Origin: an uncultured Candidatus Saccharibacteria bacterium
GTDB lineage: Bacteria; Patescibacteriota; Minisyncoccia; Phycocordibacterales; PALSA-1337
Assembly: GCA_964529025.1 (NCBI GenBank)
Contig: CAZGUZ010000005.1
Location: forward strand, 18,129-73,154
Direction of reading: 5' to 3'
Length of the DNA stretch: 55,026 bases
Shown: positions 9,759 through 52,610 of the stretch, one piece after another
How positions within the stretch are numbered: position 1 is the first letter of the stretch
Layout of the letters: the number at the start of each line of letters is the position of its first letter
The notes under the pieces: generated by a model
What the model was told of the DNA's origin: nothing
Seen by the model: only the letters and a program-made list of their open reading frames with translations
Database searches by the model: none
Program-made: the position numbers and the translations under genes

Positions 9759-9772
9759 GTCTCGACAAACAA

Positions 9773-9797
9773 AAGACCGCTCAGGCGGTTTTTTGTT
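9773..9797 (+). terminator. Intrinsic terminator after rpmA
   Basis: GACCGC-ucag-GCGGUU followed by UUUUUG. Confidence 0.65.
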
Positions 9798-9836
9798 GCG
9801 TATACGGCGTGTATTAAGTACCACTTAAACCGAGGG

Positions 9837-10781
9837 CTACTTCCCCACCACTCCCCTTGTCTTTGCTCCAAAATATCCAAGCGCAGGAGTAATACCCTTG
9901 GCTTGTTGGAATTTAATGAGAGCAGATTGAGTAAGGGTGCCGAAGTAACCAGTAGCGAGGCCTGACTCTAGGTAACCTTGTTGTATGAGGAAGGTTTGGA
10001 GGGCGGTGACATCAGAACCACGTGAACCAAGGAAGAGGTCGCGGGTGTAGGTAGTCTCTGTTGATGTTTGTGGTACAGATGGAGTTGTGGGTGTTGTAGG
10101 AGTACCAAGAGCATTCACAAAGGTACGTGTAATTGGGCCAAAGTAGCCTGATGCTGGTGTGATACCAACAGATGTTTGGAATCGTGCAAGTGCTGCTTGA
10201 GTTTTAGATCCAAATACATTGATTTCATTACCTGGAGAACCTGGTCCTGTGGTAGATACAGTGAATCCTCGAGAGTTGAGGAAGCGTTGGAGAGCAATGA
10301 CGTCAGTACCTGTAGAGCCAAAGCTGAGGTCGCGGGTGAATATTGGAGTGTTAGAGCTTGAGGTTGGTGGTACAACTAGAGTTAGGAGTGGGATTGATGG
10401 AATAACTGGCGGTGTTGTGGTTCGAATACTGCCTCCTCCCCCACGGCGGCGGGATGCAGATGGAGTTGCTGAAGCATCACAAGCAGATGTGGTAAATGAT
10501 GTAGTTTGTGTTGTTGTTCCGTACGTATTTACTGCAAAAGCTTCGACAAAGTATGTAGTGTTACATGTGAGGTCTGTGAGTGTGTATTCGTGAGTACTAA
10601 GACTGTATCTTCCTTCTGTGGTGGTGCTCATACCGTATGCTAATGATGTTCCGTAGTTGAATCCCCTTGTGTGTGCTGGGGCAGAGCCGACATCGGTGAT
10701 GCTTGCTGATATTGTTGCTCCTGTTTGGGTGATACTTGATGTGGTGATTGAAGAGAGGGTGGTGGTTGGGGTTAAAGTGAG
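9837..10781 (-). repeat. Dispersed ~1-kb repeat, copy 1 (Ig/FN3 plus 2x PG-binding cassette)
   Basis: The 314 C-terminal codons align along their whole length with the 331 C-terminal codons of 22779..26603. Most residues are identical by eye, with long identical nucleotide runs. Confidence 0.85.
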
Positions 10782-13535
10782 GCGCATAAGTTCGCGTCCG
10801 ACGTTTGGTGATACTGCTGACATATATAACTCAGTCTCGTTGTTGGTTACGATCAAGTTTGCGGGAGCAGAGCTACCTGGTCCTGGGAATATATCAAAGA
10901 CATACGTTCCTTCGACAGTACCATCAGTCTTCCAAAGTTCTGCCCCATATTCTTCGTTCATACCTTGGAAGTATGCAACATCGCCGACAACCACAAGTGA
11001 TTGAAGTATTGATGAATACAATGAACCACCCGTCACACCATCTGATGTACCTTCGTATATATCTTTTATCATGTAAGTACCGCTTGTTGTTCCGTCAGAA
11101 GTCCAGAGCTCGAAGCCAGCATCTTCTGTCTGCATTTCAAAATATACTCGAGTATCACCTGCTACTAGTGGATCATACGACGCCGAAGTTTCTGTTTGCA
11201 TTATTGGACTACCTCCGTTTAAATCTTTTACAAGGACTGTGCCAACCGTTGTTCCATCAGTTTTCCAAAGTCGGTAGTTATCATCATTCGCATTATCGTT
11301 GGTGATAATAAAGATATTTCCATCAGCTGTAGCCGCCATACTTAAGAGTGATTCGTCGTCTCCTGCAAAGAAATCTTTAACAACAGTTGTTCCTTCTATT
11401 GTTCCGTCTGAGCGAATCAAAGCCCCGCCTCCGTCACCTGCGGCCTCAACACCATAGAAATATGCAACGGAATCAACCATCACCTGACTATTTGGAAAAG
11501 CGGTGAGTACAAAAAAATCAGTTCCTGTTATCAAGGTAGTACCGCCAGAAGTACCATCAGTACGCCAAAGACCGATACCCGAAGCGTCAGTTGCCGTAAA
11601 GAATAGGCTCGACGAAGCTGTCAGAAATCTCGTTGGCGCAGACGAACTTGAACCTGATCTTATATCCTTAACCATTACGGTTCCGCCACTCGTGCCATCA
11701 GAAACCCAGAGTTCTGTACCGTTTGTACCGTCGTTTGCAGTAAAAATAAGTTGCGAACCAAGTTGATTAAAGTTTGTTAAAGATGAGCCCGTTGTTCCTA
11801 CTCTTATGTCTTTTACGAGTACTGTACCACCTTCAGTTCCATCAGTTTTCCAGAGTTCTGCGCCATTAGCTGCATCTGTTGCAGAAAAATATGTCGTATT
11901 ACCGATCTTTAACATAGCACCGGTAGCACCTGAACCTGTTGTTCCACTAAAAACATCTTTAAGGAGTGCTGTGCCGCCCGTAGTACCATCAGTCTTCCAT
12001 ATTTCTGAGTTACTACTCGATGTAGCCATTCGGAAAACAAGTTCACCATTATTTGATGGTGCAACCATCGATATAGAAACTATACCATTCGTCCCAGTAA
12101 AATCTTTCACGAGCACAGTGCCACCTGTGGTACCGTCGGTCCTCCAGAGTTCTAGTCCATTTATTCCATCATCTGCAGCAAAATAGAGGTATCCATTGAA
12201 TACAAATGGTGTTGTAGGTGATGAACTGGCAATTCCACTACGGATATCTTTTACAAGTACCGTACCGCTTTCGGTACCATCGGTTTTCCACAACTCTGAT
12301 CCTGTTGTACCATCACTTGCCGAAAAGTATACTTCGTTATTATATAAGCCTAAATGAGAAAACGACGAACCACCAGCACCTGGGTTTATATCTTTAATCA
12401 TCACTGTACCTACCTCAGTACCATCAGTTTTCCAAAGTTCTGAACCATTAGTACCATCATTTGCGGATATAATTACACTGTTACCAATCTTTGAAAGAGT
12501 CATGATTACTGATCCATTTCCAGCTCCTGGATTTATATCTTTAACGATGGTTGTACCAACTGAAGTACCATCCGTTCGCCACAACTCCGTACCACTAGCT
12601 ACATTTGTTGCAGTAAAAAGTACAACGCTACTATCTAAAGACACAAAACTACCTGGTAAGGAATTTGCACTCCCAGGGTTAATATCCTTTATTTGTTCGG
12701 CCGCAAATGTGTTACCGTCGATTCGCCATAGCTCACGACCATTTGTGCCATCCTCACCACCTGTATAAATATACGAACCGATAGCGGATAAGTTTGTAGT
12801 AAGGCTAGGATATGTTCCTAGTGAATATGTTCCGAGTTCAGTACCGTCAGATCTAATCAGCGAACCACCTACCCCATCATCATTACCAAAAAAGAATATA
12901 TTGCTACCCACACTTCGCACTGAACCAGAAACATACCCAGAACCTGCACCTGCCCATAAGTTAGCAACCATGGATGTGCCACCGCTTGTACCATCCGACT
13001 TCCACAACTCTAATCCATTTGTACCGTCATTTGCGATGAAATATATGATTGAACCTATTACTGTGTTAACACTACTCGAAACACCACCGGACGATCCCGG
13101 TCTTATGTCCTTTACCATGCGAGTACCCTCTACTGTACCATCGGTCACCCAGAGTTCAGTACCATGTTCACGAGTCGATCCACGGAAAAATAGATAGTCC
13201 GTAGTAGTCCCCATAAACAGGAATGTTGAGCTGTCTCCAATAACAATATCCTTTACAAGTACGGTACCTACACCAGTGCCATCTGTTTTCCACAGCTCTG
13301 ATCCATACTCTGGTGTATTTATAACCGTGTAGATACTACCATTAAAAAGCATTGCGCTGGTCGGTTGACCCCCAATCGTACTGATTGTATTCGAATCAAT
13401 AACGACGCTCGGCAATTGAACCGCAAGAGCTTGCTGTGCAGTCATGAAAAACGACAGCGTGCAGCAAATTGCAAAAGTGACGAAATAAAATAGTGCCCTG
13501 GTGTGCATATTTCGAGCAGCGAAGGTCAACAACAT
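9837..13535 (-). CDS. Secreted ELWxxDGT-repeat beta-propeller protein with two C-terminal peptidoglycan-binding domains
   Basis: 1232 aa with a signal peptide. There are many repeats of G.ELW[KRV][TS]DGT..GT..VKDI.PG. An Ig/FN3-like module, SRRRGGGGS and two PG_binding_1-like repeats (GS.G.DV.ALQ.FL...G...G.FG..T..A...FQ) follow. Confidence 0.9.
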   Translation of the reverse strand: MLLTFAARNMHTRALFYFVTFAICCTLSFFMTAQQALAVQLPSVVIDSNTISTIGGQPTSAMLFNGSIYTVINTPEYGSELWKTDGTGVGTVLVKDIVIGDSSTFLFMGTTTDYLFFRGSTREHGTELWVTDGTVEGTRMVKDIRPGSSGGVSSSVNTVIGSIIYFIANDGTNGLELWKSDGTSGGTSMVANLWAGAGSGYVSGSVRSVGSNIFFFGNDDGVGGSLIRSDGTELGTYSLGTYPSLTTNLSAIGSYIYTGGEDGTNGRELWRIDGNTFAAEQIKDINPGSANSLPGSFVSLDSSVVLFTATNVASGTELWRTDGTSVGTTIVKDINPGAGNGSVIMTLSKIGNSVIISANDGTNGSELWKTDGTEVGTVMIKDINPGAGGSSFSHLGLYNNEVYFSASDGTTGSELWKTDGTESGTVLVKDIRSGIASSSPTTPFVFNGYLYFAADDGINGLELWRTDGTTGGTVLVKDFTGTNGIVSISMVAPSNNGELVFRMATSSSNSEIWKTDGTTGGTALLKDVFSGTTGSGATGAMLKIGNTTYFSATDAANGAELWKTDGTEGGTVLVKDIRVGTTGSSLTNFNQLGSQLIFTANDGTNGTELWVSDGTSGGTVMVKDIRSGSSSSAPTRFLTASSSLFFTATDASGIGLWRTDGTSGGTTLITGTDFFVLTAFPNSQVMVDSVAYFYGVEAAGDGGGALIRSDGTIEGTTVVKDFFAGDDESLLSMAATADGNIFIITNDNANDDNYRLWKTDGTTVGTVLVKDLNGGSPIMQTETSASYDPLVAGDTRVYFEMQTEDAGFELWTSDGTTSGTYMIKDIYEGTSDGVTGGSLYSSILQSLVVVGDVAYFQGMNEEYGAELWKTDGTVEGTYVFDIFPGPGSSAPANLIVTNNETELYMSAVSPNVGRELMRLTLTPTTTLSSITTSSITQTGATISASITDVGSAPAHTRGFNYGTSLAYGMSTTTEGRYSLSTHEYTLTDLTCNTTYFVEAFAVNTYGTTTQTTSFTTSACDASATPSASRRRGGGGSIRTTTPPVIPSIPLLTLVVPPTSSSNTPIFTRDLSFGSTGTDVIALQRFLNSRGFTVSTTGPGSPGNEINVFGSKTQAALARFQTSVGITPASGYFGPITRTFVNALGTPTTPTTPSVPQTSTETTYTRDLFLGSRGSDVTALQTFLIQQGYLESGLATGYFGTLTQSALIKFQQAKGITPALGYFGAKTRGVVGK

Positions 13536-13595: not shown

Positions 13596-14981
13596 TTACT
13601 TATTTTTTGAGTGAATGTTCAAAAGCACTTGCTCTACAACCTTTCTATCATCCCACGCTATGCTTTTGCCACCAATAATCATCGATTGCTCTGCCCCTTT
13701 TCCTGTTACAAGAATAATGTCACCGGCTTTAGCATTTGATATTGCATGAGTAATTGCTTCGGTTCGGTCTTCTATAACAAATAGATTTGTATTGCGCACT
13801 TTACCAAACTTTTCTGCTGTTTGTGCTATATCTTCAAGAATTATCTTTGGATCATCTTCATAGGGATCAACATTGGTTACATAGGCAATGTCTGCTTTAT
13901 GGGCAACAACTTCACCCATTTCAAAACGCTTTCGAGGGTCTCGGCCACCACCTTCTGCACCAAGGAGTACAATTATCCTGCCGTTCGAAGTTAACTGTGA
14001 ATTATCGCGGTTGTGTTCTGCTCTTATATTCTGAGCACTATCAAGCACAGCATTCATACTCTGTTTTTCGTGTGCATAGTCAACGATTACCATAAAAGGA
14101 CTATTTGCTTGTGTCATTACTTGCATGCGGCCAGGAATGCCCGCAAGCGAAGCAATGCCCTTTACCATATCTTGCTCTGGTGCCCCAAGAATGCGGCCGA
14201 TAATGAGTGCAGGAAGAATATTATATACATTAAATGTACCGAGAATTGGAGTGGTGTACGCCGTTGAACCAACCGTAAACGATGTACCTCCTGAATTACT
14301 TTTAATTGCAGTCGCAACAACATCGCCGTGTGTAAGGCTATAAGTTACTTTTGTATCTGCACCGAAGCCCGCATAGTATGGCATGTGTTCACTATCAGCA
14401 TTGGTAATTATAGCTGTAGGAATTTGTCGCCCGAGTATTGTTTTGCGTACTGAATTTTGCTTAACACCCCGGTCTTGTACAGCCTTAAAGAGCAAACCCT
14501 TAGTCTGTTTATATTCCTCAAAACTATTATTATGCGATGGTAAATGCTCGGGAGTAAGATTGGTAAAGACAGCAATGTCATAGACTATTCCACGGTGGCG
14601 CTGTTGCTTAAGTCCTTCTGATGTTGTTTCAACAACACATACCGAACAGCCTGCTTTAACCATATCTTTCATAAGGCTCGGAATTGCGAAACGCCCCGGC
14701 ATTGTCATGTGATAGTAGTTGAGAGTCTCATTTCCTCCAATGCGAATGTTTGCCGTACTAATGATGCACGTTTTAATGTTGGCAGCATTAAGCACTGACC
14801 AAATAAAATTTGCTGTTGAAGTTTTACCTTTGGTTCCGGTAACGCCAATAACTACCATCTTTTTGGATGGCATACCAGCAAGTATGTGACCAATGTACGA
14901 CAAAAGAGCATGGTACGCCGTTAGTACTACATGTGGAGTTATTGAGCGAATAGTTTTTTTGAAAAAATTAATTGCGGACAT
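13596..14981 (-). CDS. murE: Mur ligase family protein, MurE-like (UDP-MurNAc-dipeptide:amino acid ligase)
   Basis: 461 aa with the P-loop GVTGTKGKTST, Mur ligase middle and C-terminal layout and TNLTPEHL. The amino-acid specificity cannot be read from the sequence. Confidence 0.8.
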   Translation of the reverse strand: MSAINFFKKTIRSITPHVVLTAYHALLSYIGHILAGMPSKKMVVIGVTGTKGKTSTANFIWSVLNAANIKTCIISTANIRIGGNETLNYYHMTMPGRFAIPSLMKDMVKAGCSVCVVETTSEGLKQQRHRGIVYDIAVFTNLTPEHLPSHNNSFEEYKQTKGLLFKAVQDRGVKQNSVRKTILGRQIPTAIITNADSEHMPYYAGFGADTKVTYSLTHGDVVATAIKSNSGGTSFTVGSTAYTTPILGTFNVYNILPALIIGRILGAPEQDMVKGIASLAGIPGRMQVMTQANSPFMVIVDYAHEKQSMNAVLDSAQNIRAEHNRDNSQLTSNGRIIVLLGAEGGGRDPRKRFEMGEVVAHKADIAYVTNVDPYEDDPKIILEDIAQTAEKFGKVRNTNLFVIEDRTEAITHAISNAKAGDIILVTGKGAEQSMIIGGKSIAWDDRKVVEQVLLNIHSKNK

Positions 14982-16149
14982 AGGATCGTATATATGAAAT
15001 AATTTTTACTAAACAATAGCCAAGGTATCGGAATCGGCGAACAGGAACGTCGTACATAAATGGGTGCACACGAGCCTCTCCACCAAACTTTGTTTTAAAT
15101 TCTGTAATTCCCTTCCAACCAAACTTGGGGAAATTAGGTGTCGATATACCACCAAAATTGTACCATATTTTACCGTCTCGCTTAGAACGCTCAAGAGCTT
15201 TCCACTGTGCTAAATATGTAGGCATGAGGTTTCGACCACTATTTGATGAAGTTCCAAACAAGTAATATGCCGAAGTTTCTGTATATACTATCAAATTCGA
15301 AACCAAGAGTTTTTGGTCATCACCTACCCCTTCGTATACATTTATAAGAAAACCGCCTTTACTACGGGATGTTGTAGTAAATACAGCTTTATAATAAGCA
15401 TGATCGTGCATACAAAATTTATCGCGCTCAGCCGTTTCTTTCATTAAAACCTCAAAGTTTTTTTGATGTCCTAAAATATCTTTTCCTGTAACAACTTCGT
15501 ACGATACAATCTTTTCAGCAAGCTTTTTTTCGGCAAGCTTAATACTGTATCGCGTCTTATGATGCATTGCTGCCAATATTTCGGCATAGGTCTGCTTAAG
15601 TGATATATGCCATTCGGCGCGTGGCTGAAAATATGATCCACCCAAACGATATTGGGGCATAAGTTTCTGTATACCCTGAGGAACGAGTTCTTGATATACT
15701 TTTTTGCCTTTAATTTTTTGTGGTAACGAGGTATAAATCGTCGCATCAGTACGAATGAAAACTGTAGTGTTTGTACTGTGATTGAGTACAGCGAGTGACT
15801 CTTCAATGCTTTTAATAGTTTGACGCAGAACACGGCTCATACATTCAATTTCTTGTCGAATATTTGCAGAATTTGGCACTACCATAACTGGCCCATAAGG
15901 GGTATACCAATACTGCATACGGGTTGAGCCCATATGATAACGAACCGCTAAGCCTGCGCCACAAAAAATTCCGTCTCGAACAATACAAAACCATATGACT
16001 TTGCGCTTATTCTTAATTTGCCACTCCGCATACTGAACAGTTTGAGTCAAAGGTATTTCAATGTCAGGAAAACTCAAAATAAGCTGTTGTATGAGCTCTT
16101 GTGTTCCAAGGGTTATTTCATAATGTGGCTGCGGCTGAGGAGTAAACAT
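14968..16149 (-). CDS. FemAB-family peptidyltransferase (peptidoglycan interpeptide-bridge formation)
   Basis: 393 aa. The pattern ...AYYLFGTSSNSGRNLMPTYLAQWKALERSKRDG..WYNFGGI... is typical of FemA/FemB/FemX. It overlaps the murE-like start by 14 nt. Confidence 0.8.
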   Translation of the reverse strand: MFTPQPQPHYEITLGTQELIQQLILSFPDIEIPLTQTVQYAEWQIKNKRKVIWFCIVRDGIFCGAGLAVRYHMGSTRMQYWYTPYGPVMVVPNSANIRQEIECMSRVLRQTIKSIEESLAVLNHSTNTTVFIRTDATIYTSLPQKIKGKKVYQELVPQGIQKLMPQYRLGGSYFQPRAEWHISLKQTYAEILAAMHHKTRYSIKLAEKKLAEKIVSYEVVTGKDILGHQKNFEVLMKETAERDKFCMHDHAYYKAVFTTTSRSKGGFLINVYEGVGDDQKLLVSNLIVYTETSAYYLFGTSSNSGRNLMPTYLAQWKALERSKRDGKIWYNFGGISTPNFPKFGWKGITEFKTKFGGEARVHPFMYDVPVRRFRYLGYCLVKIISYIRSYVRN

Positions 16150-16196
16150 CGTTTCGGAATATACAGAATTTTACGAACTTACATTGTGGGTGCAGA

Positions 16197-17489
16197 TTAT
16201 AGGTACGACAATGGATTCATATAACCTTGTGGGTCAGAGACAGGGATTACGGCACCATTACAATTTCGACTCGTAGTAAGTTTAGTGATTCGAACTGCTT
16301 CGGTCAAGTAAACGCCGAAGTGTAAGTGTGGGCCGGTTGAATAACCGGTATTACCACTGTATGCAATAAGATCACCACGTGATACTGCTTGGCCGGTCTT
16401 AACAAGAGGTGTTGATAGGTGGGCAAACAATGTTGAAAGGCCGTTTGGGTGTTTGATCATTACCCAGCGTCCATATGAATAGCAGCCACGAATTAAACCG
16501 GTATCACCAACACCAGCAACAATACCATCAGCCGGAGCAAAGACTTTTGTACCAACAGCCGCACGCAAATCGATACCGTTGTGTCCTTGTCCACCATAGC
16601 CTTGCGGATTTTTTGTTGCAAAAGGAGTATTGCCGAAATATTGTGTAATAGTTACACTTGCAAGAGGCCAACTCAAAACACCCGTTCCAGCCTTTGGAAC
16701 TGATGATGGATTAATTGCAATTTTAAGTTCTGATTCGAACTTAAATATTTCTTGTTCGAAAAGTATTTTTTGCGCAACCTTGTCTGCGATAATTTTTTTG
16801 TAGTTTGCTTCTGTATTTTTTGTAGCAGATAAGAGTGATGCTTGCTCAGCCTTTGTATCAGCCAAAAGCTTATTTTGATTACTGAGCTGTTGGCGTAATT
16901 TTAATAATTCAGCGCGCTGGTTTTCAACAGATTTTTTATTATTCTCAAGAGTCTTTTTACTTGCTTCAAGTTCGGTAATAGCTTCACTTACCCCTTCTTG
17001 AATTCGCTCAAGACTGTCAGCTTCAGAAAAAAAGTTTGAGAGCGATAGATCACCGAGTAGAATTTCAACAAGTGAAACTGAATCGTTTTTGTGAATAGTC
17101 TTAATACTCTCTTTAATCGTATTTTGATTAAAAAGTATGCGCTCGTTTCTTGCTGTAATGTCTTCAGATAGATTCCCTATTTTATCATTTGCAGCATTGA
17201 TTTTTGCTTGGGTAACTTTAAGATCAGCTTCAATCTTTTTTTGTGAAAGTTCGAGTGAGCGAACAGTATTCTGAAGTGTATTTGCCTCTTTACTAATTGA
17301 CTCGAGCTCGTTTTGGTACTGAGCAATTTCCCTTTCTAGAAGTTCAATACCTGAATTTCTGTCATTGATTTGTCGCTGCAGCACATCGACATTTTGTGCA
17401 TATGCCGAAACAGGCAGTGTCGCCATAATAACCATGATTGCGACACCGCCTGTTTTTTGTATGAGGTTCGATAGAGAGAATCGAACCAT
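16197..17489 (-). CDS. M23 family metallopeptidase with N-terminal coiled coil (EnvC-like)
   Basis: 430 aa with a signal/TM segment and a long coiled coil. The C-terminal LytM motifs are GHNGIDLRA and GNTGYSTGPHLHF. Confidence 0.9.
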   Translation of the reverse strand: MVRFSLSNLIQKTGGVAIMVIMATLPVSAYAQNVDVLQRQINDRNSGIELLEREIAQYQNELESISKEANTLQNTVRSLELSQKKIEADLKVTQAKINAANDKIGNLSEDITARNERILFNQNTIKESIKTIHKNDSVSLVEILLGDLSLSNFFSEADSLERIQEGVSEAITELEASKKTLENNKKSVENQRAELLKLRQQLSNQNKLLADTKAEQASLLSATKNTEANYKKIIADKVAQKILFEQEIFKFESELKIAINPSSVPKAGTGVLSWPLASVTITQYFGNTPFATKNPQGYGGQGHNGIDLRAAVGTKVFAPADGIVAGVGDTGLIRGCYSYGRWVMIKHPNGLSTLFAHLSTPLVKTGQAVSRGDLIAYSGNTGYSTGPHLHFGVYLTEAVRITKLTTSRNCNGAVIPVSDPQGYMNPLSYL

Positions 17490-17494
17490 CGGTA

Positions 17495-17989
17495 TTAGCC
17501 CTTATCCCCCACTGCTAATGTTGCTCGGAATGTTTGAACAACTGGTGAACCTGTTGTTCCAAGAGCTGGTGCATCTGTTGCATCAAATACACCATTTGCA
17601 TTTGAGTCTACATAAAGTGCCACGAAGTATGTCTTACCATCGAGAGTCTTTGTTGTAAGGTTAACCTGACCTGGTCGCACTCCTGCCTTTACGTATGAAG
17701 TACCCATAACTTTACCACCCTTTGCTGGATCTGCATCGTACACAACAACAAAACCATCTTTTGCAAGTTCAACTGTTGTTACATATACAATGTTACCAGG
17801 AAACTGATCAGTAACAGTAACCACATTCTTGTACTGTGGCAACTGAGTTGTTGTCACAGATGAAGGAGTACCGGCAGGCATACTATCCCCGCGAGTAAGC
17901 ATGTACACACCAAACACAATAAGAGCTACTACGACAATAGCCGTAATGACCCACTGTGTTACTGAAATACCAGATCTATTTGGTTCCAT
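17495..17989 (-). CDS. Hypothetical membrane-anchored extracytoplasmic protein
   Basis: 164 aa with one N-terminal TM helix followed by a beta-rich domain. Appears co-transcribed with the M23 gene (5-nt gap). Confidence 0.6.
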   Translation of the reverse strand: MEPNRSGISVTQWVITAIVVVALIVFGVYMLTRGDSMPAGTPSSVTTTQLPQYKNVVTVTDQFPGNIVYVTTVELAKDGFVVVYDADPAKGGKVMGTSYVKAGVRPGQVNLTTKTLDGKTYFVALYVDSNANGVFDATDAPALGTTGSPVVQTFRATLAVGDKG

Positions 17990-18073
17990 ATATAAATTAT
18001 TGAGTTAACGAATAACATACTAAGTATACCATGCGCACACCGAGCACAAGTGTGCCAAAATGTTGACAAGTTT

Positions 18074-19210
18074 CTACTTTTCGTGCGAAATACCGATTTC
18101 GAGCGCCGCTGTGGCTATTTTATGGGCCGCATCCTTAGGTGCAAAGTTCTTAGTAGCTTGCCGCATTACGTCATACACTCGAGTATCCTGCAATATTGAA
18201 TCAATCTGTGTGCACAAAATTGCCGAGCTAATATTGTGCTCTTCAATAACCTGGCATGCCCCTGTTTGAGCATATGCAAAAGCATTTTTTGTTTGATCAT
18301 GACTTACTTCTTCACGCAGAGGAATTATGATTGAAGGCTTTTCCCAAGCTGCAATTTCGAATATCGTTGAACCAGCTCGAGAAATTACGAGAGTTGCAAC
18401 TCCAGCAGCCATACGCATCCCTAAATCATTGATGTAATCAATTGGATGGTAGCGTGTTGCATACTTTGATTTTGCTAAGACAACTCCGCTAATCTGAGTC
18501 ACGTATGCTAAATTTGCTCGACCAGTTTGATGAATGATTTGATACTTTTCAAGAAGCTTTGGGAGTGATTCAACAATAACATCATTAATGAGCTGTGCTC
18601 CTTGTGAACCACCAAGAATTAAAAGCGTTGGCACATCGGTTTCAAGATTAAAGTGTTCAAAAGCTCCGTGAGTAATGGGTTGTAGAACACTTTGTCGCAT
18701 AGGGTTTCCTGTAACGGCAACTTTTTCGAGATCTTTCTTTTTAAAGTATTTTGCAGCTTGTGGGTATGAAATTGCTATCTTTTTTGCAAAAGGAGCCGAC
18801 CATAGTGTTACAACACCAGGTGCACTATCAGACTCATGAATAATTACGGGTATTCGTAAAATCCGTGCAGCAACGAGTGGAGGAAAACTTGCATACCCCC
18901 CTTTGCTGATAACTACATCAGGATAGATTTTATAGAGTTCAATTACTGAAGAAAATATACCGCTTATCGTTTTGAAAATATCGGTAAAATTGAGCACAGA
19001 AAAATATCGGCGATACTTACCCGCTGATATTGGTATAAATTGTATATTACGATCAAAAAGCGCTCGGGGATTATATGGAGTTGGCGCTATGTAATAAAAA
19101 GCTGGAGTGATAATTTTTTGAGCAGCAGAAATATCGATCATTGCATCTGCAATTGCAATGAGTGGGTAAAAATGTCCTCCTGTAGCACCTCCTGTAAATA
19201 CTATTTTCAT
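18074..19210 (-). CDS. murG: UDP-GlcNAc:lipid I GlcNAc transferase MurG
   Basis: 378 aa with an N-terminal GGTGGHFYP motif and GT28 layout. Adjacent to ftsW. Confidence 0.9.
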   Translation of the reverse strand: MKIVFTGGATGGHFYPLIAIADAMIDISAAQKIITPAFYYIAPTPYNPRALFDRNIQFIPISAGKYRRYFSVLNFTDIFKTISGIFSSVIELYKIYPDVVISKGGYASFPPLVAARILRIPVIIHESDSAPGVVTLWSAPFAKKIAISYPQAAKYFKKKDLEKVAVTGNPMRQSVLQPITHGAFEHFNLETDVPTLLILGGSQGAQLINDVIVESLPKLLEKYQIIHQTGRANLAYVTQISGVVLAKSKYATRYHPIDYINDLGMRMAAGVATLVISRAGSTIFEIAAWEKPSIIIPLREEVSHDQTKNAFAYAQTGACQVIEEHNISSAILCTQIDSILQDTRVYDVMRQATKNFAPKDAAHKIATAALEIGISHEK

Positions 19211-19215
19211 ATTTT

Positions 19216-20349: not shown

Positions 20350-20350
20350 A

Positions 20351-21430: not shown

Positions 21431-21431
21431 G

Positions 21432-21983: not shown

Positions 21984-22000
21984 AGTTACAGTATACCGCA

Positions 22001-22726: not shown

Positions 22727-22778
22727 AGAGTGCTTATAGTATACCGCACAAAACAAGCAGGTTTTGTACTCTACAAAA

Positions 22779-23774
22779 CTACCGAGTAATAAAGCCCCTC
22801 GTCTTTGCCCCAAAGTACCCAAGCGCAGGAGTAATACCCTTAGCTTGTTGGAATTTAATAAGAGCAGACTGTGTAAGAGTACCGAAGTAGCCAGTAGCGT
22901 AGCCTGACTCTAGGTAGCCTTGTTGTATGAGGAAGTTTTGGAGTTCTGTGACATCAGAGCCACGTGAGCCAAGGAAGAGGTCACGGGTATAGGTGGTTTG
23001 AGTTGTTGTTTGTGATGAAGGTGTTGTTGAGGTTTGTGGTTTAGTTGGAGCTGTAGGAGTACTTGGTGTGATTGGAGTTTGAACTGGAGTACCAAGAGCA
23101 TTCACGAAAGTGCGTGTAATAGGGCCAAAGTAGCCTGATGCTGGTGTAATACCAACAGATGCTTGGAATCGTGCAAGTGCTGCTTGTGTTCTTGATCCAA
23201 ATACATTGATTTCATTACCTGGAGAACCTGGTCCTGTTGTAGATATGATGTATCCTCGAGAGTTGAGGAAGCGTTGGAGAGCAATGACATCGGTTCCGAC
23301 AGAACCGAAGGTGAGGTCGCGGGTGAATATAGTGGTATTAGAGCTTGTGGTTGGTGGTAGTACGAGAGTTGGGAGTGGTGTTGTTGGAGTAACTGGGGCT
23401 GTTGATGTGGCTGATGGTGATATACGTGAGCCTCCCCCTCCTCCGCGGCGGCGGGATGGGGTTGCCGAAGCATCACAAGCAGATGTAGTAAATGATGTTG
23501 TTTGTGTTGTTGTACCGTACGTATTTACTGCAAAAGCTTGTACGTAGTAGGTAGTGTTACATGTAAGATCTGAGAGTGTGTACTCGTGAGTACTGAGACT
23601 GTATCTTCCTTCTGTGGTGGTGCTCATACCATATGCTAGTGATGTTCCGTAGTTAAAGCCTCGTGTGTGTGCTGGAGAGAAGCCGACGTCGGTGATGCTT
23701 GCTGATACTGTTGCTCCTGTCTGTGAAATGCTTGTTGTGGTGATTGAAGAGAGGGTGGTAGTGGGGGTAAGAGA
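22779..23774 (-). repeat. Dispersed ~1-kb repeat, copy 2
   Basis: Same orientation as copy 1, about 12 kb away. Confidence 0.85.
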
Positions 23775-26603
23775 TACAACATATAATTCACTACCATACT
23801 GCGGAGTACTTGCAGAAAAATAAAGCTTATGAGTAATCTCCTGAAAACTTAAATATGGCAAAGAAAGTGAAGAACCTATCCCTTCTACAATATCCGCAAA
23901 TAAATAAGTACCCTCTGAAGTTCCATCCGTCTTCCATAGCTCTCTACCATGCTCAGAGTCAAAACCAACGAAATAAAATGTCTCTCCCACATTTTCATAG
24001 TTATTACCTCGAGAGTTATAGCCGCTACCTGAACTCACTCTTGAGTTTGAGGCGTATGCACCGTCAATTGTACCCGTACCTACATCCTCGAGTGGCGTAG
24101 AAGTTGTAGAAAAACCATCTGTAAACCACCATTCATAACCATATACTGGATGATCGAAGCTATAATAAATACCTCGAGTGGTCGGAACCATACCAATACT
24201 TGCAGACTCACTCGAAGTTGTCTTGAGTTGATGGATTGGAATTGTCCCCTCTGTTGTTCCATCAGATCGCCATAAACTAGTTTCATTGCTATTTCCCGCA
24301 TCTGAATTTCCTATAAAATACAAGTATCCATTACTCGAGACAATTAACCTGTCGACAATTGCATTGGATGAACTAATTGGCAAATTCTTTACAAGATATG
24401 TACCTGCAGATGTACCGTCGGTTCTTATAAGATCATAGCTACCAGTTCCGTCTGTCATTGAAAGATAAACAACTCCGTTGAGAATATCACCTTGAAAGTG
24501 TCCTGAATTTACTATTTGTCCACTTGCTCCCGTAGCAAAATTCTTTACTAAATATGTACCAGCATCGGTACCATCTGATGTCCACAGCTCTTTACCATTA
24601 GTTCCGTCATCTGCAAAAAAATACAATGATGATGTACCAGCCACAAAACCACCAGGACTTGAGCCTGTCGAACCACTCCGTATATCTTTTACCAACACTG
24701 TTCCCACCTCGGTACCGTCACTTACCCACAATTCAACACCTGAGGTTGCAGTATTAACAGTAAAAAATAACTTATCGTTAATAATTAATGAGTTTCTATC
24801 GTTACTTGAGCTTGGGTATGAGCTTGCACTTCCTGCATTTATATCTTTTACCATCATTGTTCCACCCTCTGTAAAGTCGGTTTTCCAGAGTTCGGTTCCA
24901 TTTACGCCATCATTATAAAAGAAATAAAATTCCGTACCGATTTTACCCAAAACTTCAAATGGGGATATATTTGGAACAACCAAAGAAGTCGAGCTCTCAG
25001 TACCATCAGTCTGCCATAAACCATAGTTTGAGGCCTGGTTAGTTGCATAAAAATAAGTTTCATCATCCCTGAATAAAAATCTGGATAGATTTGAACCCAC
25101 GTCTCCATTCGCAATATTCTTTACCATGACTGTACCCTCCTCTGTTCCATCCGTCCTCCACAACTCTGTACCATCAATTCCATTGTTTGCTGGAAAATAA
25201 ACATATGAACCAAAAGATACGAATTGAACAATTGGAGAAGATGGTGAAAATAGCGAAGGGGTAAAAGCGTATGTAGTCAAAGAGCTTGAAGAACCAGAAT
25301 AAATATCTTTTACTCGAATAGTACCGCTTTCAGTTCCATCGGTCTTCCATAATTCTCTGCCAGAGGTTCCATCATCAATACCAAGAATTAAACTTGTTCC
25401 ATTAAGGAGAGCGGTCGGAGAAAACATTGATATTCCACCAGAAGCATTGATGTTTTTAATCATAACGGTACCCACTTCTGTTCCATCTGATTTCCACAAT
25501 TCTATACCATTTACACCATCGTCTGCGGTGAAAATTATATTGTCTCCAAGCACTGCAATAATTGCAGGACTAGAACTAGCAATACCGGGGTTAATGTCTT
25601 TCACCATGACAGTTCCAGTCTCGGTTCCGTCAGATTTCCACAATTCTATGCCATGCGTACTATCTGAAGCGCCAAAATACACCAGGTCACCATGCGCTTT
25701 TAAATTAGTAAAAGTTGGGCTACTACTTCCAGTATTAATATCCTTTACCATATAAGTACCTGTTGCAGTACCATCGGTTTTCCATAATTCATTTCCAAAT
25801 AAGCTGTCATCAGCCGTGAAAAATACTGAGGTTGTTGACACAGTAAAATTTGCTGGACTAGAGCCTTGGGCACCTGCTCTAATATCTTTTATCATTACTG
25901 TACCTGTAGCAGTTCCGTTTGATGACCATAATTCATTTTGATTTCCCAAGGAAAGTGACGCACTAAAAATAAGTAGTCCATTGAGATTTACCAATGAGTT
26001 TTGGGCCATGCGCAGCGAAGTATTCGAGACTTGTACCGTTCCACTTGCTGTTCCATCAGTCCTCCAAAGATTAATTGCGCTACCTCCGGTAATGTTAGCT
26101 GCATAATATATTTGATTATCTACTTGAACCACATTTCCTGCATTAGTAGTAAGGCCCTGAGTGCCTGAACGTGCATCAAGAATAATACTTGTACCCTCTT
26201 CGGTTCCATCTGTCCTCCAAAGTTCCTGTCCATAGACACTTGAATACGGGAAAATAATCCAATATGGATCTATAAAACCATAGTAAAGACCTCCACCGCC
26301 ATTACTACCCACTTCTATGTCAGCAATACGATTTGTTCCCTCAGCTGTGCCATCTGATCTCCACCATTCAAAACCCGACTCTATATCATCAGCAAGAAGG
26401 ATAAAATGACCACCTGAAGTTGAAGCTGTGTGGAGACTTACATAAGAACCATTCGGAACAGCTGCTATATTTTTTACTAACTGAGGAACAGCGGCAGCTT
26501 GAGCATAATTTATTCCGTAAGCAAAAAAGGCAACTAACACAAGCAGTGCTAATGCATATTTACGTATAGTTATAAAAAATCGAGAGGTCGCAAAAATAGA
26601 CAT
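22779..26603 (-). CDS. Secreted ELWxxDGT-repeat beta-propeller protein with two C-terminal peptidoglycan-binding domains (paralog of 9837..13535)
   Basis: 1274 aa with a signal peptide, many ELW[KRV][TS]DGT repeats, an Ig/FN3-like module, SRRRGGGGGS and two PG_binding_1-like repeats. Confidence 0.9.
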   Translation of the reverse strand: MSIFATSRFFITIRKYALALLVLVAFFAYGINYAQAAAVPQLVKNIAAVPNGSYVSLHTASTSGGHFILLADDIESGFEWWRSDGTAEGTNRIADIEVGSNGGGGLYYGFIDPYWIIFPYSSVYGQELWRTDGTEEGTSIILDARSGTQGLTTNAGNVVQVDNQIYYAANITGGSAINLWRTDGTASGTVQVSNTSLRMAQNSLVNLNGLLIFSASLSLGNQNELWSSNGTATGTVMIKDIRAGAQGSSPANFTVSTTSVFFTADDSLFGNELWKTDGTATGTYMVKDINTGSSSPTFTNLKAHGDLVYFGASDSTHGIELWKSDGTETGTVMVKDINPGIASSSPAIIAVLGDNIIFTADDGVNGIELWKSDGTEVGTVMIKNINASGGISMFSPTALLNGTSLILGIDDGTSGRELWKTDGTESGTIRVKDIYSGSSSSLTTYAFTPSLFSPSSPIVQFVSFGSYVYFPANNGIDGTELWRTDGTEEGTVMVKNIANGDVGSNLSRFLFRDDETYFYATNQASNYGLWQTDGTESSTSLVVPNISPFEVLGKIGTEFYFFYNDGVNGTELWKTDFTEGGTMMVKDINAGSASSYPSSSNDRNSLIINDKLFFTVNTATSGVELWVSDGTEVGTVLVKDIRSGSTGSSPGGFVAGTSSLYFFADDGTNGKELWTSDGTDAGTYLVKNFATGASGQIVNSGHFQGDILNGVVYLSMTDGTGSYDLIRTDGTSAGTYLVKNLPISSSNAIVDRLIVSSNGYLYFIGNSDAGNSNETSLWRSDGTTEGTIPIHQLKTTSSESASIGMVPTTRGIYYSFDHPVYGYEWWFTDGFSTTSTPLEDVGTGTIDGAYASNSRVSSGSGYNSRGNNYENVGETFYFVGFDSEHGRELWKTDGTSEGTYLFADIVEGIGSSLSLPYLSFQEITHKLYFSASTPQYGSELYVVSLTPTTTLSSITTTSISQTGATVSASITDVGFSPAHTRGFNYGTSLAYGMSTTTEGRYSLSTHEYTLSDLTCNTTYYVQAFAVNTYGTTTQTTSFTTSACDASATPSRRRGGGGGSRISPSATSTAPVTPTTPLPTLVLPPTTSSNTTIFTRDLTFGSVGTDVIALQRFLNSRGYIISTTGPGSPGNEINVFGSRTQAALARFQASVGITPASGYFGPITRTFVNALGTPVQTPITPSTPTAPTKPQTSTTPSSQTTTQTTYTRDLFLGSRGSDVTELQNFLIQQGYLESGYATGYFGTLTQSALIKFQQAKGITPALGYFGAKTRGFITR

Positions 26604-49247: not shown

Positions 49248-49510
49248 CTAATTCCCCACCACTCCCCTCGTCTTCGCCCCAAAGTACCCCACTGCAGGAG
49301 TAATATTGTTAGCTTGTTGGAATTTAATGAGAGCAGATTGAGTAAGTGTGCCGAAGTAGCCAGTAGCGTAGCCTGACTCTAGGTAACCTTGTTGTATGAG
49401 GAAGGTTTGGAGTGCTGTAACGTCGGAGCCACGTGAGCCAAGGAAGAGATCGCGGGTATAGGTGGTTTGAGTTGTTGTTTGTGGTACAGATGGAGTTGTG
49501 GGTGTTGTAG
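49248..49510 (-). repeat. Dispersed repeat, copy 3 (last PG-binding domain plus Thr/Pro linker only)
   Basis: The nucleotide sequence 49251-49510 closely matches 9841-10100 and 22783-~23000, for example ...ttgttggaatttaatgagagcagattgagtaag.... Confidence 0.8.
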
Positions 49511-50657
49511 GTGTTTGTGGTGTAGCAGCGGTGAGTTCAGCAATACGAGCTTGTGTAAGGGGGCCCATAGTGCCAGTTGGTGTAATATTGTTTGCTTGCT
49601 GGAAGAGTTTAAGTGCAGCTTCAGTAGCACGTCCAAAGTACGTTGTTTCTTGGCCTTGTGATCCATTACCCTGTGCAGCTACGGTATATCCTTGTGAGTT
49701 CAGGAAGCGTTGGAGAGTGCGGACATCTTCTCCTGTAGTTCCTGATGTTAAGTTACGTGTGAATACGGTTGAACGTTGTGTGCTTGGGGGAAGAGTTGAT
49801 GTGTTTCGGGGTGCTGAGGGGGTTGAGGGGGTTGATTCAATTGTTGGAGTACGTACCACTCTTCCTCCACTGCTGCGGCGGCGGGATGGGGTGGGTTCGG
49901 GGTTTGGTGTTGTAGGGGCATTAGGGTCAATGACAGTACTGAGGTTAGTTATTGTAGTGTTAGTGAGGTTAATTGCTTCATTGCCTGAATAGTCTCTAAC
50001 TGAGTTATCTCCTGCTGTATATGACACTGTTACTGTATTACCTTGATATATAGTTGTTGTACTTACGAGGAGTATTGTTGAACTTGCAAGAGTTACTGAT
50101 ACTGGTGTAGATGTTGCGCCATTAATGGTGATGATGTAGTCAGTGGTTGTTGGAGCACCAATAGTTACGTCCTCAAGGAATTCACTGTATTGCAAGTATA
50201 TTGTTGTTCCATCAGTTGATGTTGTTGCTGATGACAGAGTTGGAGCTGTGGTGTCGGGGCCGGCGTTGAAGATGGCGAGGCGGCTGTATGAACCTTGACC
50301 TAAATACATGAGTTCATTTTCTTCATCATAATCAGCGAACTCCGCTATGACTGAGGTTGAAGAAGCAACATTCGCATCAATAAGGCTATTTGATTCGAAA
50401 GTTTCCCTACCCGCATATGCTATTGCTGGTTCATTATTCTCAATTTGTGCAACATTGAAAATCTTAATACCTCCACCAACATATGTAATAAGTCGATCAT
50501 TTGAGTAAGCCAAGGCGCCTACACCACCCACAGTTCTTCGTCCCTTTATTTCATATGTACTTGTTGTAAAGTTTGGTTGACCAATGACATTCTCCGCCAT
50601 ACGGCCACTCGTAGTTGTTGCTGCATCAAAAACCATAATTCTTCTGCTGTCAGACAC
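49248..50657 (-). CDS. C-terminal part of a split NHL-repeat wall-binding protein (Ig-like module plus two PG-binding domains)
   Basis: 469 aa with no signal peptide. The N-terminus continues the NHL-like repeat of the upstream ORF. It contains SRRRSSGGR and two PG_binding_1-like repeats, and the C-terminus is near-identical to those of the ELWxxDGT proteins. Confidence 0.75.
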   Translation of the reverse strand: MSDSRRIMVFDAATTTSGRMAENVIGQPNFTTSTYEIKGRRTVGGVGALAYSNDRLITYVGGGIKIFNVAQIENNEPAIAYAGRETFESNSLIDANVASSTSVIAEFADYDEENELMYLGQGSYSRLAIFNAGPDTTAPTLSSATTSTDGTTIYLQYSEFLEDVTIGAPTTTDYIITINGATSTPVSVTLASSTILLVSTTTIYQGNTVTVSYTAGDNSVRDYSGNEAINLTNTTITNLSTVIDPNAPTTPNPEPTPSRRRSSGGRVVRTPTIESTPSTPSAPRNTSTLPPSTQRSTVFTRNLTSGTTGEDVRTLQRFLNSQGYTVAAQGNGSQGQETTYFGRATEAALKLFQQANNITPTGTMGPLTQARIAELTAATPQTPTTPTTPSVPQTTTQTTYTRDLFLGSRGSDVTALQTFLIQQGYLESGYATGYFGTLTQSALIKFQQANNITPAVGYFGAKTRGVVGN

Positions 50658-50666
50658 ATATAATTT

Positions 50667-52610
50667 CTATCGCACTCCATCTATTGCAAGTCCTTGAGGT
50701 GCACTACCGAAATTAGTTTGAGTATATGCTGGGGAAGACGAAAATGTAGTATTACCAATAACACTGATCGCGGCTTCTCCATCAGTGATACCGTCAGATA
50801 TATTGTACATGTAAACAATTGATGATATCTCATTTACTGCAAATAAATACCCTGTAGTTGTGCTGTATACCAAAGCGCCGGGTAATCGAATATTTGTTGC
50901 ACTCGTTGATCCACCAAAAGTTTCAGTAAAGTTAGTTTTTCCCAAAACGTTCGTGGCTGGTTCTCCATTTACGATAGTAGATGTGTCAAATACTAATATT
51001 CGGTTATTAGTATAATCTGAGACAAATAACCTATTATTCGCCGAATCGAAAGCGAGCCCTGTCGGCCTACTCATTCCCGTCTGGGTTGTAGAAGCAATGG
51101 ATGTTGTAAAGTCAGGCTGCCCTAAAACATAGTCAGCTTCGCGGTCGATAAGTCGGTGTGAGGAGTCGAGATTAAATACAAGAACACGGTTGTTATTTGG
51201 ATCTGACACAAAAAGTCGATCGTTAACTTTATCTATAATTGGAGCCATTCCGTAACCATTGAATGTGGTTGAGCGTGCAAACCCATTATTACGATTGCCC
51301 GAAAAGAAATTTTGTAAGGACATATTACCTGTGGCTGTATCAGTATTTTGTCCAAGAACCGCCACCGCTGGCTCCCCCATACTGATATTCTCGACATCAA
51401 AAAATAGAATTCGATTTTGGTTTGCACTGTTCATAACTAGAGTTGTACTCGCAAATGCTAGGCCACCCCAATTCAATGTTGTGGTACCAATCGGTAATGT
51501 ACTCCCGTTAGTTGATGTTACTGGAACCCCCAAAGCACTCACAAAAGTTCCTGGAGTAGTAATACTTGTTGTATTGTATATTGTAACCCTCCTCTCATTG
51601 GTCACAAAAAGATATTTACGCACTGGGTCGAAAGCCAGGCCAGATACATTTGCTGTTGAAAGCGCAGGATTAGAGCAACATGTTCCACTATTAATAGTTA
51701 CTGATGTTTGAGTGAGTACACCGAGAGCTGGTTCGGTATTGGTGATATTTGCTACATCGAAAACCGAAACTCGTCTACCGTTTCCAACATATAAATACTG
51801 GCGTTCATACTCATACTGAAGCGCAGTTACAAACTGTAGTCCGGTTGCCGTTGAAGAAGCAATATTTGTCGTAAAATCTGGCTGGCCAAGAACGTTCACG
51901 GCCGATTCACCATTAGTAATTGTTGTCACATCGAATACGAGCACACGAAAATTATCCTCTTCTCCCACGAATAGTCTATTATTAACAGTATCGACAGCCA
52001 CAGCTTTAGGGTCAAAAATCGTTGAAGCTGTGAGACCTGGCTCTCGGGTAGTAAAATCAGGCTGTCCGAGTACATAGATAGCAGCCTCGCCATTAGTTAT
52101 ACTTGCCACATCGTAAACAAGTACACGGTTACCTATATTATCCGCGACGTATAACAATTGTGTTGTTGAGGCATAAGCAAGACCCGTGGGGGTAGAGAGT
52201 CCTGTGGCTGATGTGACAGCGGTTCTGGTTACAAAGTCAGGCTGACCGAGCACGTAGTCTGCCAGAGCATCGATAGGACGAAGATTTTCGTCGAGGTTAA
52301 ATACTAGAATGCGGTTATTGCCAGAGTCTGAAGCAAAAAGTCTTCTTCCGGTCTCGTCAATTACTACCCCCACCTGCAAAGCTGAGCCCGATGATGCCAA
52401 TCCAACCCTCCCTAGTTTCGCACTATTCGGATTCAATCCCGTATAATCAAGAACAAACGGATCAGCATCAGGATCAACATACTGACCAATCATATCAACA
52501 GCATCTTCAATTGGTACAAGAGGGGCTGCAAAAGCAGAACTACTCAAAAGCCCCATTGCTACAGCAAAAAAACATATTGCTAGTGCCTGTGATACAAGAT
52601 AGTTCTTCAT
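50667..52610 (-). CDS. N-terminal part of a split secreted NHL-repeat beta-propeller protein
   Basis: 647 aa with a signal peptide (AICFFAVAMGLLSSSAFA). About 10 repeats of the type VLGQPDFTT....P.GLA.D....LFVSD..NNR.LVFD. It ends at a TAG that is in frame with ORF 49248..50657. Confidence 0.8.
   Translation of the reverse strand: MKNYLVSQALAICFFAVAMGLLSSSAFAAPLVPIEDAVDMIGQYVDPDADPFVLDYTGLNPNSAKLGRVGLASSGSALQVGVVIDETGRRLFASDSGNNRILVFNLDENLRPIDALADYVLGQPDFVTRTAVTSATGLSTPTGLAYASTTQLLYVADNIGNRVLVYDVASITNGEAAIYVLGQPDFTTREPGLTASTIFDPKAVAVDTVNNRLFVGEEDNFRVLVFDVTTITNGESAVNVLGQPDFTTNIASSTATGLQFVTALQYEYERQYLYVGNGRRVSVFDVANITNTEPALGVLTQTSVTINSGTCCSNPALSTANVSGLAFDPVRKYLFVTNERRVTIYNTTSITTPGTFVSALGVPVTSTNGSTLPIGTTTLNWGGLAFASTTLVMNSANQNRILFFDVENISMGEPAVAVLGQNTDTATGNMSLQNFFSGNRNNGFARSTTFNGYGMAPIIDKVNDRLFVSDPNNNRVLVFNLDSSHRLIDREADYVLGQPDFTTSIASTTQTGMSRPTGLAFDSANNRLFVSDYTNNRILVFDTSTIVNGEPATNVLGKTNFTETFGGSTSATNIRLPGALVYSTTTGYLFAVNEISSIVYMYNISDGITDGEAAISVIGNTTFSSSPAYTQTNFGSAPQGLAIDGVR

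Follow-up and report, generated by a model that had tools for sequence, protein, structure and literature searches.

What are the three giant proteins encoded in a 55,026-nt stretch of bacterial DNA (the window, below), how would they be held at the cell surface, and how has the likeness of their C-terminal ends been kept? An earlier note on this DNA had described the products of the three genes, here named A, B and C, as giant secreted beta-propeller proteins on one shared wall-binding cassette; in the light of the structure models, the words "giant secreted beta-propeller proteins" are fair. The likely answer is that A, B and an intact C are Sec-exported and held non-covalently in the cell's own wall by a pair of C-terminal PG_binding_1 domains, and that the cassette has been homogenized by episodic gene conversion under strong purifying selection. 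The N-terminal beta-propeller head (two ELWxxDGT propellers in A and B, NHL blades in C) would presumably be the ligand-binding part. A spacer of one Ig-like module, a disordered basic/poly-Gly junction and Thr/Pro/Ser-rich linkers would display the head on a stalk, and the two three-helix PG_binding_1 domains would retain the protein in the wall. Coordinates are positions in the window, and all three genes lie on its minus strand:

9837..13535, minus strand: gene A, predicted exported ELWxxDGT-repeat tandem-propeller protein with C-terminal cassette (1232 aa, intact open reading frame (ORF)).
22779..26603, minus strand: gene B, second predicted ELWxxDGT tandem-propeller protein, carrying the cassette shared with A (1274 aa, intact ORF).
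49248..52610, minus strand: gene C, NHL-propeller protein that shares part of the cassette and has one nonsense codon (two ORFs).

Both A and B are intact genes of the ELWxxDGT type, as had been claimed, each with 16 stretches matched by the repeat model TIGR04534 (730.7 bits for A and 705.2 bits for B, cut-off 65). C has no match to this model. Signal peptides had been proposed for all three proteins, and inspection agrees: each N-terminus runs from a basic n-region through a hydrophobic core (mean Kyte-Doolittle 2.05-2.61 over 15 residues) to a site of the AxA type (ALA/VQ, AQA/AA and AFA/AP in A, B and C, respectively), suggesting export. In A, the core is LFYFVTFAICCTLSF (mean Kyte-Doolittle 2.05), followed by QQALA/VQ. 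The exact product of A from its first ATG (13506-13535) is absent from the protein collection, while that of B is present. Met10 (MHTRALF...) is probably the start that gene callers use for A, and gives a more canonical signal peptide. No LPxT[GAN], NPxTG or LAxTG motif is found in A, B or C, and there is no transmembrane-like window beyond the signal peptide. Thus, the PG_binding_1 pair would be the only retention device in these proteins. The parts of A and B are as follows:

13422..13535, minus strand: putative signal peptide of A, approximately residues 1-38, cleavage after ALA (by inspection).
10791..13421, minus strand: head of A, about 17 four-stranded ELWxxDGT blades, modeled as two beta-propellers.
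10476..10778, minus strand: predicted FN3-fold spacer of A, start of the cassette common to B (identity jump, structure model and Foldseek).
10428..10454, minus strand: junction motif of A (SRRRGGGGS), within a linker predicted to be disordered.
10113..10343, minus strand: first PG_binding_1 domain of A (Pfam; three-helix model).
9840..10052, minus strand: second (terminal) PG_binding_1 domain of A, nearly the same in B and C (Pfam; model).
23472..23774, minus strand: predicted FN3-fold spacer of B (92% aa and 89% nt identity to that of A).
23427..23456, minus strand: SRRRGGGGGS junction motif of B.
23100..23330, minus strand: first PG_binding_1 domain of B (Pfam).
22782..22994, minus strand: second (terminal) PG_binding_1 domain of B (Pfam).

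The head of A (888 aa) and its cassette (312 aa, with a 50-sequence alignment) were modeled with AlphaFold2 (AF2). The head model is all-beta, with about 68 strands in four-strand units (predicted local distance difference test (pLDDT) 82.7, predicted template modeling score (pTM) 0.73) and a low-confidence break midway, at model residues 445-452. The top Foldseek matches are all multi-propeller proteins (YWTD propellers of megalin/LRP6, GH74, PorZ, sortilin and Elp2), and are at the level of the fold only (~10% identity, template modeling (TM) score 0.3-0.4). The ELWxxDGT repeats of A thus appear in the model as beta-propeller blades, probably forming two propellers. The head of C is of another kind, with a clear match to the NHL repeat (PF01436, 69.8 bits, cut-off 20) and matches in a PDB sequence search to the NHL domains of SOQ1, NHLRC2 and TRIM71 (E 1e-8 to 1e-5).

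The architecture suggests that the heads bind ligands, possibly as adhesins. It is somewhat unlikely, though still to be reckoned with, that they are instead enzymes or modules for substrate capture, such as propellers acting on glycans or lactones, which the anchor would simply keep at the cell surface. GH74 xyloglucanases are among the Foldseek matches of the A head, the C head has weak Pfam matches to the Arylesterase, SGL and Lactonase propellers, and many proteins with a tandem PG_binding_1 anchor are hydrolases. However, the propeller matches of the A head do not go beyond the fold, and no catalytic motif was identified in the heads. Additionally, a PDB sequence search with A found no solved relative, and the term ELWxxDGT appeared in no paper in the literature search, leaving the family without a characterized member.

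In the cassette model of A, the first module is a seven-strand sandwich (pLDDT 55-80). Its top 50 Foldseek matches are almost all FN3 domains or FN3-derived scaffolds (probability 1.0, TMt 0.6-0.7), although by sequence it falls below the cut-off of the Pfam FN3 families, with only PF25059 matching (16.9-17.2 bits, cut-off 39). Residues 102-139 of the cassette, which include RRRGGGG, have pLDDT below 50 and are predicted to be disordered, and both linkers are 59-69% Thr/Pro/Ser. The PG_binding_1 domains are modeled with pLDDT above 90, each with three helices (157-168, 190-202 and 214-223 in the first, 254-265, 280-292 and 304-311 in the second). The corresponding family, PF01471, is matched by two domains per protein (71.2, 73.2 and 89.8 bits in A, B and C, cut-off 23), and there are weak NCBIfam matches to the N-terminal region of SleB. 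A profile search found PG_binding_1 in no other ORF of the window. Binding of peptidoglycan is predicted from membership of this family, which is listed among the anchor domains in a survey of fibrillar adhesins (10.1101/2020.12.07.414375). The head and cassette models together bear out the proposal of a modular family in which one anchor carries different propeller heads.

The earlier note had suggested a survey of related genomes for the anchor on other heads, and it does occur on them. A total of 215 relatives of the cassette were found, and the PG_binding_1 domain is at the extreme C-terminus in 92 of the 120 that were retrieved. The heads carried on a tandem C-terminal PG_binding_1 tail include M23, NlpC/P60, GH18, FN3, Big_9 and NHL. 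The named relatives are mostly from Paceibacterota, Parcubacteria or Patescibacteria, and those in GTDB genomes are mostly from metagenome-assembled genomes (MAGs) of Patescibacteria. The heads of A and B, for their part, are 33-42% identical to thousands of proteins, and ELWxxDGT heads in other phyla end in type IX secretion system (T9SS) Por_Secre_tail, dockerin, RTX, SLH, cadherin-like or LPXTG modules. ELWxxDGT heads thus appear to be widespread, with the tandem PG_binding_1 tail a general wall-retention module of this lineage's own, in the role that T9SS tails, dockerins, SLH, RTX and LPXTG modules would have on ELWxxDGT heads elsewhere. PG_binding_1 is carried by only a few of the ELWxxDGT relatives, namely P0121, P0122, P0125, P0127 and P0196. 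The last of these, a 1202-aa protein from a JGI metagenome with 36% identity, has an ELWxxDGT head, an FN3-like module, AGRRSSSRSGGGGGGTG and two PG_binding_1 domains. Thus, the design of head plus cassette appears to be older than the lineage studied here. A literature search on Patescibacteria, peptidoglycan binding and surface proteins found nothing; the terms appeared in a single CPR paper, and there among the references alone.

The resemblance among A, B and C is strongest at the very end. The final 85 or so residues had been called almost identical in all three, and the last ~70-88 residues are indeed 90-97% identical in every pair. At the DNA level, three 267-nt copies (repeat family D2) are 81-88% identical. 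Nucleotide identity between A and B rises from ~0.4-0.5 in the head to ~0.72-0.9 near 10793. It is 0.8-0.9 over the stretch from the FN3 module, which begins at ~10790 in A, up to the stop codon, and the likeness among all three genes ends at their stop codons. Only the last ~90 codons, which encode the terminal PG_binding_1 domain and the final part of the second linker, are common to the three. The linkers are the least conserved parts of the cassette. Thus, the resemblance is not a low-complexity effect, an explanation that the earlier note had named as fatal to its proposal.

The C-terminal architecture had been described as the same in all three proteins. This holds for A and B but only partly for C, in which the Ig-like module is of the SWM type, without sequence homology to the FN3 module of A and B, and the first PG_binding_1 domain is divergent. 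Additionally, C is not one ORF in this strain, as had been assumed from its coordinates, although its NHL head and its two PG_binding_1 domains are as expected. Its parts are:

50667-52610, minus strand: upstream ORF of C, 647 aa, with a putative signal peptide.
50667..50669, minus strand: in-frame TAG of C (also in the independent assembly L001).
49248-50657, minus strand: downstream ORF of C, 469 aa, without a signal peptide.
50010..50255, minus strand: Ig-like module of C, SWM_repeat or "cyanobacterial long protein repeat" (PF13753, E 4.6e-8; TIGR02059, 50.8 bits, cut-off 40.1).
49863..49886, minus strand: SRRRSSGG(R) junction motif of C.
49536..49766, minus strand: first PG_binding_1 domain of C, diverged from those of A and B (~50% identical in aa, ~60% in nt).
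49248..49514, minus strand: putative converted tract of C, covering the terminal PG_binding_1 domain and the last part of the Thr/Pro linker (88% nt identity to 9837-10103 in A).

Gene conversion had been offered in the earlier note as the source of this likeness. It was assessed with B', an orthologue of B from a GTDB MAG (L002:2737-6510) in which synteny is conserved (S41 protease upstream), and with two A-type proteins, A1 and A2 (P0121/L070 and P0122/L071). Between A and B, the proportion of synonymous differences (pS) is saturated in the head (0.74, confidence interval (CI) 0.70-0.79) and 0.24-0.43 over the cassette segments. It is 0.33 (CI 0.21-0.45) in the FN3 module, 0.24 (CI 0.14-0.34) in the first PG_binding_1 domain (PG1) and 0.39 (CI 0.27-0.52) in the second (PG2), and none of these three intervals overlaps with that of the head. 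Between the orthologues B and B', pS is 0.48 in the head and 0.27-0.54 in the cassette. Thus, the low pS between the A and B cassettes is more than the mark of a synonymous cold spot. In the head, informative sites favor the split by orthology, A + A1 against B + B' (480, versus 31 and 26 for the alternatives), and those in PG2 favor the split by genome, A + B against B' + A1 (16, versus 3 and 2). With C included, the counts are 14:3:1 for A + C against B' + A1 and 14:2:1 for B + C against B' + A1, and neighbor-joining bootstrap support for A + B + C is 88%, from few taxa. Mosaicism is seen at a fine scale, with C sharing variants alternately with A and with B, and one linker tract of 25 codons is 97% identical between A and C but ~55% identical in the other pairs.

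A further comparison is provided by the related MAG, in which another cassette gene follows B':

L002:6532-9590, plus strand: NHL/SWM-type cassette gene in the related MAG, reaching the contig end.

This gene, directly downstream of B', carries "TPSRRRGGGGSRIS" and a PG1 that is 95% identical at the nucleotide level to that of B', whereas PG1 of C in the window is only 60% identical to those of A and B. Thus, one kind of gene appears to have received cassette tracts of different length in the two genomes. The head of the L002 gene is 48% identical to that of C. In the window, the position directly downstream of B is occupied by ScpA. The order of the genes near the cassette genes is thus rearranged between L002 and the window, possibly via the repeats.

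A contribution of strong purifying selection to the likeness is also indicated. The proportion of nonsynonymous differences (pN) is 0.02-0.07 in the cassette and 0.29-0.44 in the heads, and the cassette is ~90% conserved between species whose heads are 55-60% identical. These values, with the absence of long identical tracts, would fit an explanation in which there was no gene conversion and the cassette is alike only because selection on it is stronger than on the heads. However, selection at the protein level cannot bring pS down from its saturated value in the head to that in the cassette. Nor would it have cassettes cluster by genome against the head tree, PG1 of an NHL gene be of the A/B type in one genome and distant from it in the other, or a near-identical linker tract in A and C lie beside weakly similar ones in other pairs. 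Selection as the sole cause is therefore highly improbable. The synonymous discontinuity, the incongruent trees and the tract boundaries in L002 support gene conversion or cassette exchange among the paralogues, in which non-reciprocal recombination would have been episodic, with tract boundaries varying between genes and genomes.

The earlier proposal thus stands as to exchange but needs amending as to its age and as to selection. No long identical tracts of the kind left by recent conversion were found between the cassettes, where the longest are 44, 42 and 35 nt and nucleotide identity is 82-92%. With identical stretches of at most 44 nt and pS of 0.24-0.43, the exchanges appear not to be recent, and homogenization is old. 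A chimeric assembly of the cassette is unlikely, as unitigs specific to one copy occur at single-copy depth in three runs and exact shared stretches do not exceed 44 nt. This is shorter than an Illumina read of ~150 nt, a typical length and not one recorded for these runs. A metagenome scan for further close copies of the cassette yielded only one 1.2-kb fragment, at 86% identity.

The TAG codon that divides C is found in an independently deposited metagenome contig (L001), which differs at one base in 4962 nt (99.98% identity), and also in a Logan contig from run X1, making a sequencing or assembly error unlikely. All sampled words of the C region are also present in the sister freshwater runs X2-X4. 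In a contig from another study, A>G at 50669 (plus strand) gives CAG (Gln). Thus, C was one gene of ~1120 codons until a recent CAG-to-TAG mutation, which segregates between populations and makes C a nonsense allele in this strain. An alternative genetic code or programmed read-through of TAG was rejected, given the single in-frame TAG, the normal reading of all other long ORFs in table 11 and the CAG allele elsewhere. Contigs from wastewater RNA-seq (metatranscriptome) match C at 100% (50387-50645 and 50437-50864), hinting at transcription in another habitat, although carry-over of DNA is possible.

Between the Ig-like module and the first Thr/Pro linker, each protein has the basic Gly motif reported in the earlier note, at 10428-10454 in A (SRRRGGGGS), 23427-23456 in B (SRRRGGGGGS) and 49863-49886 in C (SRRRSSGGR). 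The codons TCC CGC CGC CGC in C are the same as those in B despite unrelated flanks. Since Arg and Gly codons differ between copies and genomes, the motif appears to be maintained at the protein level, and an origin as a slippage-prone simple DNA repeat was ruled out on the same grounds. Among 120 ELWxxDGT relatives, the motif occurs in only five, all with the PG_binding_1 cassette, besides one unrelated RTX repeat. Thus, the motif appears to travel with the anchor and not with the head. Of 120 relatives of the anchor, only seven, with other heads (e.g. Big_9), have a basic-G4+-basic sequence at the same position, such as TRRSRGGGGGTRR and RRRSRGGGGGGSKK, and a G4+ run is found at the junction position in 26 of the 104 with enough upstream sequence. 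The motif is in none of 119 DnaK controls. Strict conservation of RRR was ruled out, as the closest fragment homologue, P0001, has S6-N-G10 without Arg.

On a conservative reading, the junction would be a hinge. The earlier note had suggested that cleavage or sorting might occur at the motif. In a fuller form of this idea, the RRR-G4-5-S-x-R junction would be a processing site linked to Gly-bridge wall chemistry, and the anchor might also recognize host walls; this is quite improbable, though the motif recurs on unrelated heads upstream of PG_binding_1 anchors in Patescibacteria, and the genes between A and B include those for a FemAB-family transferase and a peptidase of the M23 (lysostaphin) family. 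If it were true, cleavage in or beside the Gly run could either release the propeller heads from the wall-bound anchor or leave an oligo-Gly N-terminus exposed, to be joined covalently by transpeptidases or sortases to peptidoglycan or to other proteins.

The question of whose wall is bound turns on the organism and on the genes around A and B. The nearest named relatives of its DnaK are Candidatus Taylorbacteria, Paceibacterota, Parcubacteria and Patescibacteria (77-81% identity), placing the organism, as far as sequence can tell, in Paceibacterota, within the candidate phyla radiation (CPR)/Patescibacteria. The window sequence is present in freshwater metagenomes. A and B flank a block of genes on the same strand:

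13596-22822, minus strand: peptidoglycan/division block, between A and B.

The block consists of ScpA, ScpB, S11 DD-carboxypeptidase, FtsW, MurG, DUF7282, M23 peptidase (16197-17489), FemAB and Mur ligase genes, and upstream of B are genes for L9 and an S41 Ctp protease. With such genes, the cell makes peptidoglycan of its own, and the presence of FemAB and M23 suggests that the peptidoglycan is bridged by Gly or other amino acids. The A and B cassettes bracket the block as ~0.9-kb direct repeats, 85-90% identical. The ScpA ORF as mechanically called (TTG start at 22822) overlaps the final 44 nt of B (22779-22822), so its true start is probably further downstream. Just downstream of A, at ~9770-9800 (minus strand), a GC-rich hairpin followed by a T run (AAAAAACCGCCTGAGCGGTCTTTTGTTT) resembles an intrinsic terminator, which would end the long same-strand gene array.

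Elsewhere in the window, 33692-39886 (minus strand) encodes a 2064-aa protein with SpvB, TcdB_toxin_midN, FG-GAP and RHS-repeat domains, an architecture of Tc/RHS-type polymorphic toxins that is notable for a reduced CPR genome. The small DUF7674 ORF that comes after it (33247-33690, minus strand) could encode an immunity protein.

The earlier note had raised the possibility that the PG_binding_1 pair has the wall of a host as its target. On this reading, the ligand would be peptidoglycan of a bacterial host, and an episymbiont would use the proteins for attachment or attack, while another part of them held on to the producer. The organism belongs to Patescibacteria, a group generally known to include episymbionts, the giant toxin-like gene would fit an interactive lifestyle, and PG_binding_1 is known from phage endolysins, enzymes that attack foreign walls, and is listed in the literature among phage cell-wall-binding modules. 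However, as A, B and C lack a second retention device, nothing would attach them to the producer. The anchor is C-terminal behind Thr/Pro linkers, as in wall-retained proteins of Gram-positive bacteria, the same tandem anchor is found on the housekeeping-type hydrolases M23, NlpC/P60 and GH18 in related genomes, and the cell's own peptidoglycan genes adjoin A and B. Binding to a host wall is thus unlikely. Given those genes and the many other heads on which the anchor occurs in the phylum, binding to the cell's own wall would be the parsimonious reading.

Several points weigh against the proposal of own-wall retention with cassette exchange. C is broken in this strain, and the identity of the PG_binding_1 domain is silent on whose wall is bound. 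The clustering by genome comes from few taxa and short segments, with A1, A2 and B' from separate metagenomes. The CIs of pS within and between genomes overlap. PG1 has low pS in all comparisons (0.21-0.34), which may reflect synonymous constraint or repeated transfer between lineages.

The cell-surface biology of Patescibacteria/CPR is little explored, and these cells depend on contact with other organisms. Retention in the own wall gives a concrete and testable picture, in which large binding modules would be displayed via a phylum-typical tandem PG_binding_1 tail behind Thr/Pro linkers. The model of A is also a first, predicted description at fold level of an ELWxxDGT head, as two tandem propellers, for a family with thousands of members. 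Streamlined genomes are usually thought to be poor in repeats; this one still keeps a repeated cassette of ~0.9 kb, apparently with exchange between paralogues.

The closest parallels are the Cwp/CWB2 proteins of C. difficile, the pneumococcal choline-binding proteins, the GW proteins of Listeria and the SLH proteins of Bacillus, which are paralogous Gram-positive surface families on a non-covalent C-terminal wall-binding module. As in these families, a signal peptide is followed by a variable head and a spacer, wall-binding domains are repeated at the C-terminus, and paralogues share the anchor, without LPXTG or a membrane anchor. A, B and C differ in the kind of anchor, a tandem PG_binding_1 pair for which wall binding is predicted, in the giant beta-propeller heads and in the host lineage, an ultra-small CPR bacterium. 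The ELWxxDGT proteins of Planctomycetota, Bacteroidota, Myxococcota and cyanobacteria have the same repeat, but theirs end in other anchor modules. The same PG_binding_1 family is found in the wall enzymes SleB, Streptomyces Zn D-Ala-D-Ala carboxypeptidase and the phiKZ gp144 endolysin; here, however, two copies of the domain form the very end of presumably non-enzymatic propeller proteins, after a basic/poly-Gly junction.

Concerted evolution of repeated modules is known from the choline-binding regions of pneumococcal PspA/PspC and from other contingency surface genes. The likeness to PspA/PspC is in the homogenized anchors on divergent heads, the mosaic tracts and an anchor tree that is incongruent with the head tree, whereas here exchange took place long ago (82-92% nt identity, no identical tract above 44 nt) and in a streamlined genome. 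Thus, the Gram-positive logic of modular surface proteins on a shared anchor is known, and is extended here to a new lineage without overturning anything. The novelty lies in how the elements are combined and in the lineage: in a CPR genome, ELWxxDGT and NHL propellers are joined by a basic/poly-Gly junction to a tandem PG_binding_1 tail, with a documented history of exchange.

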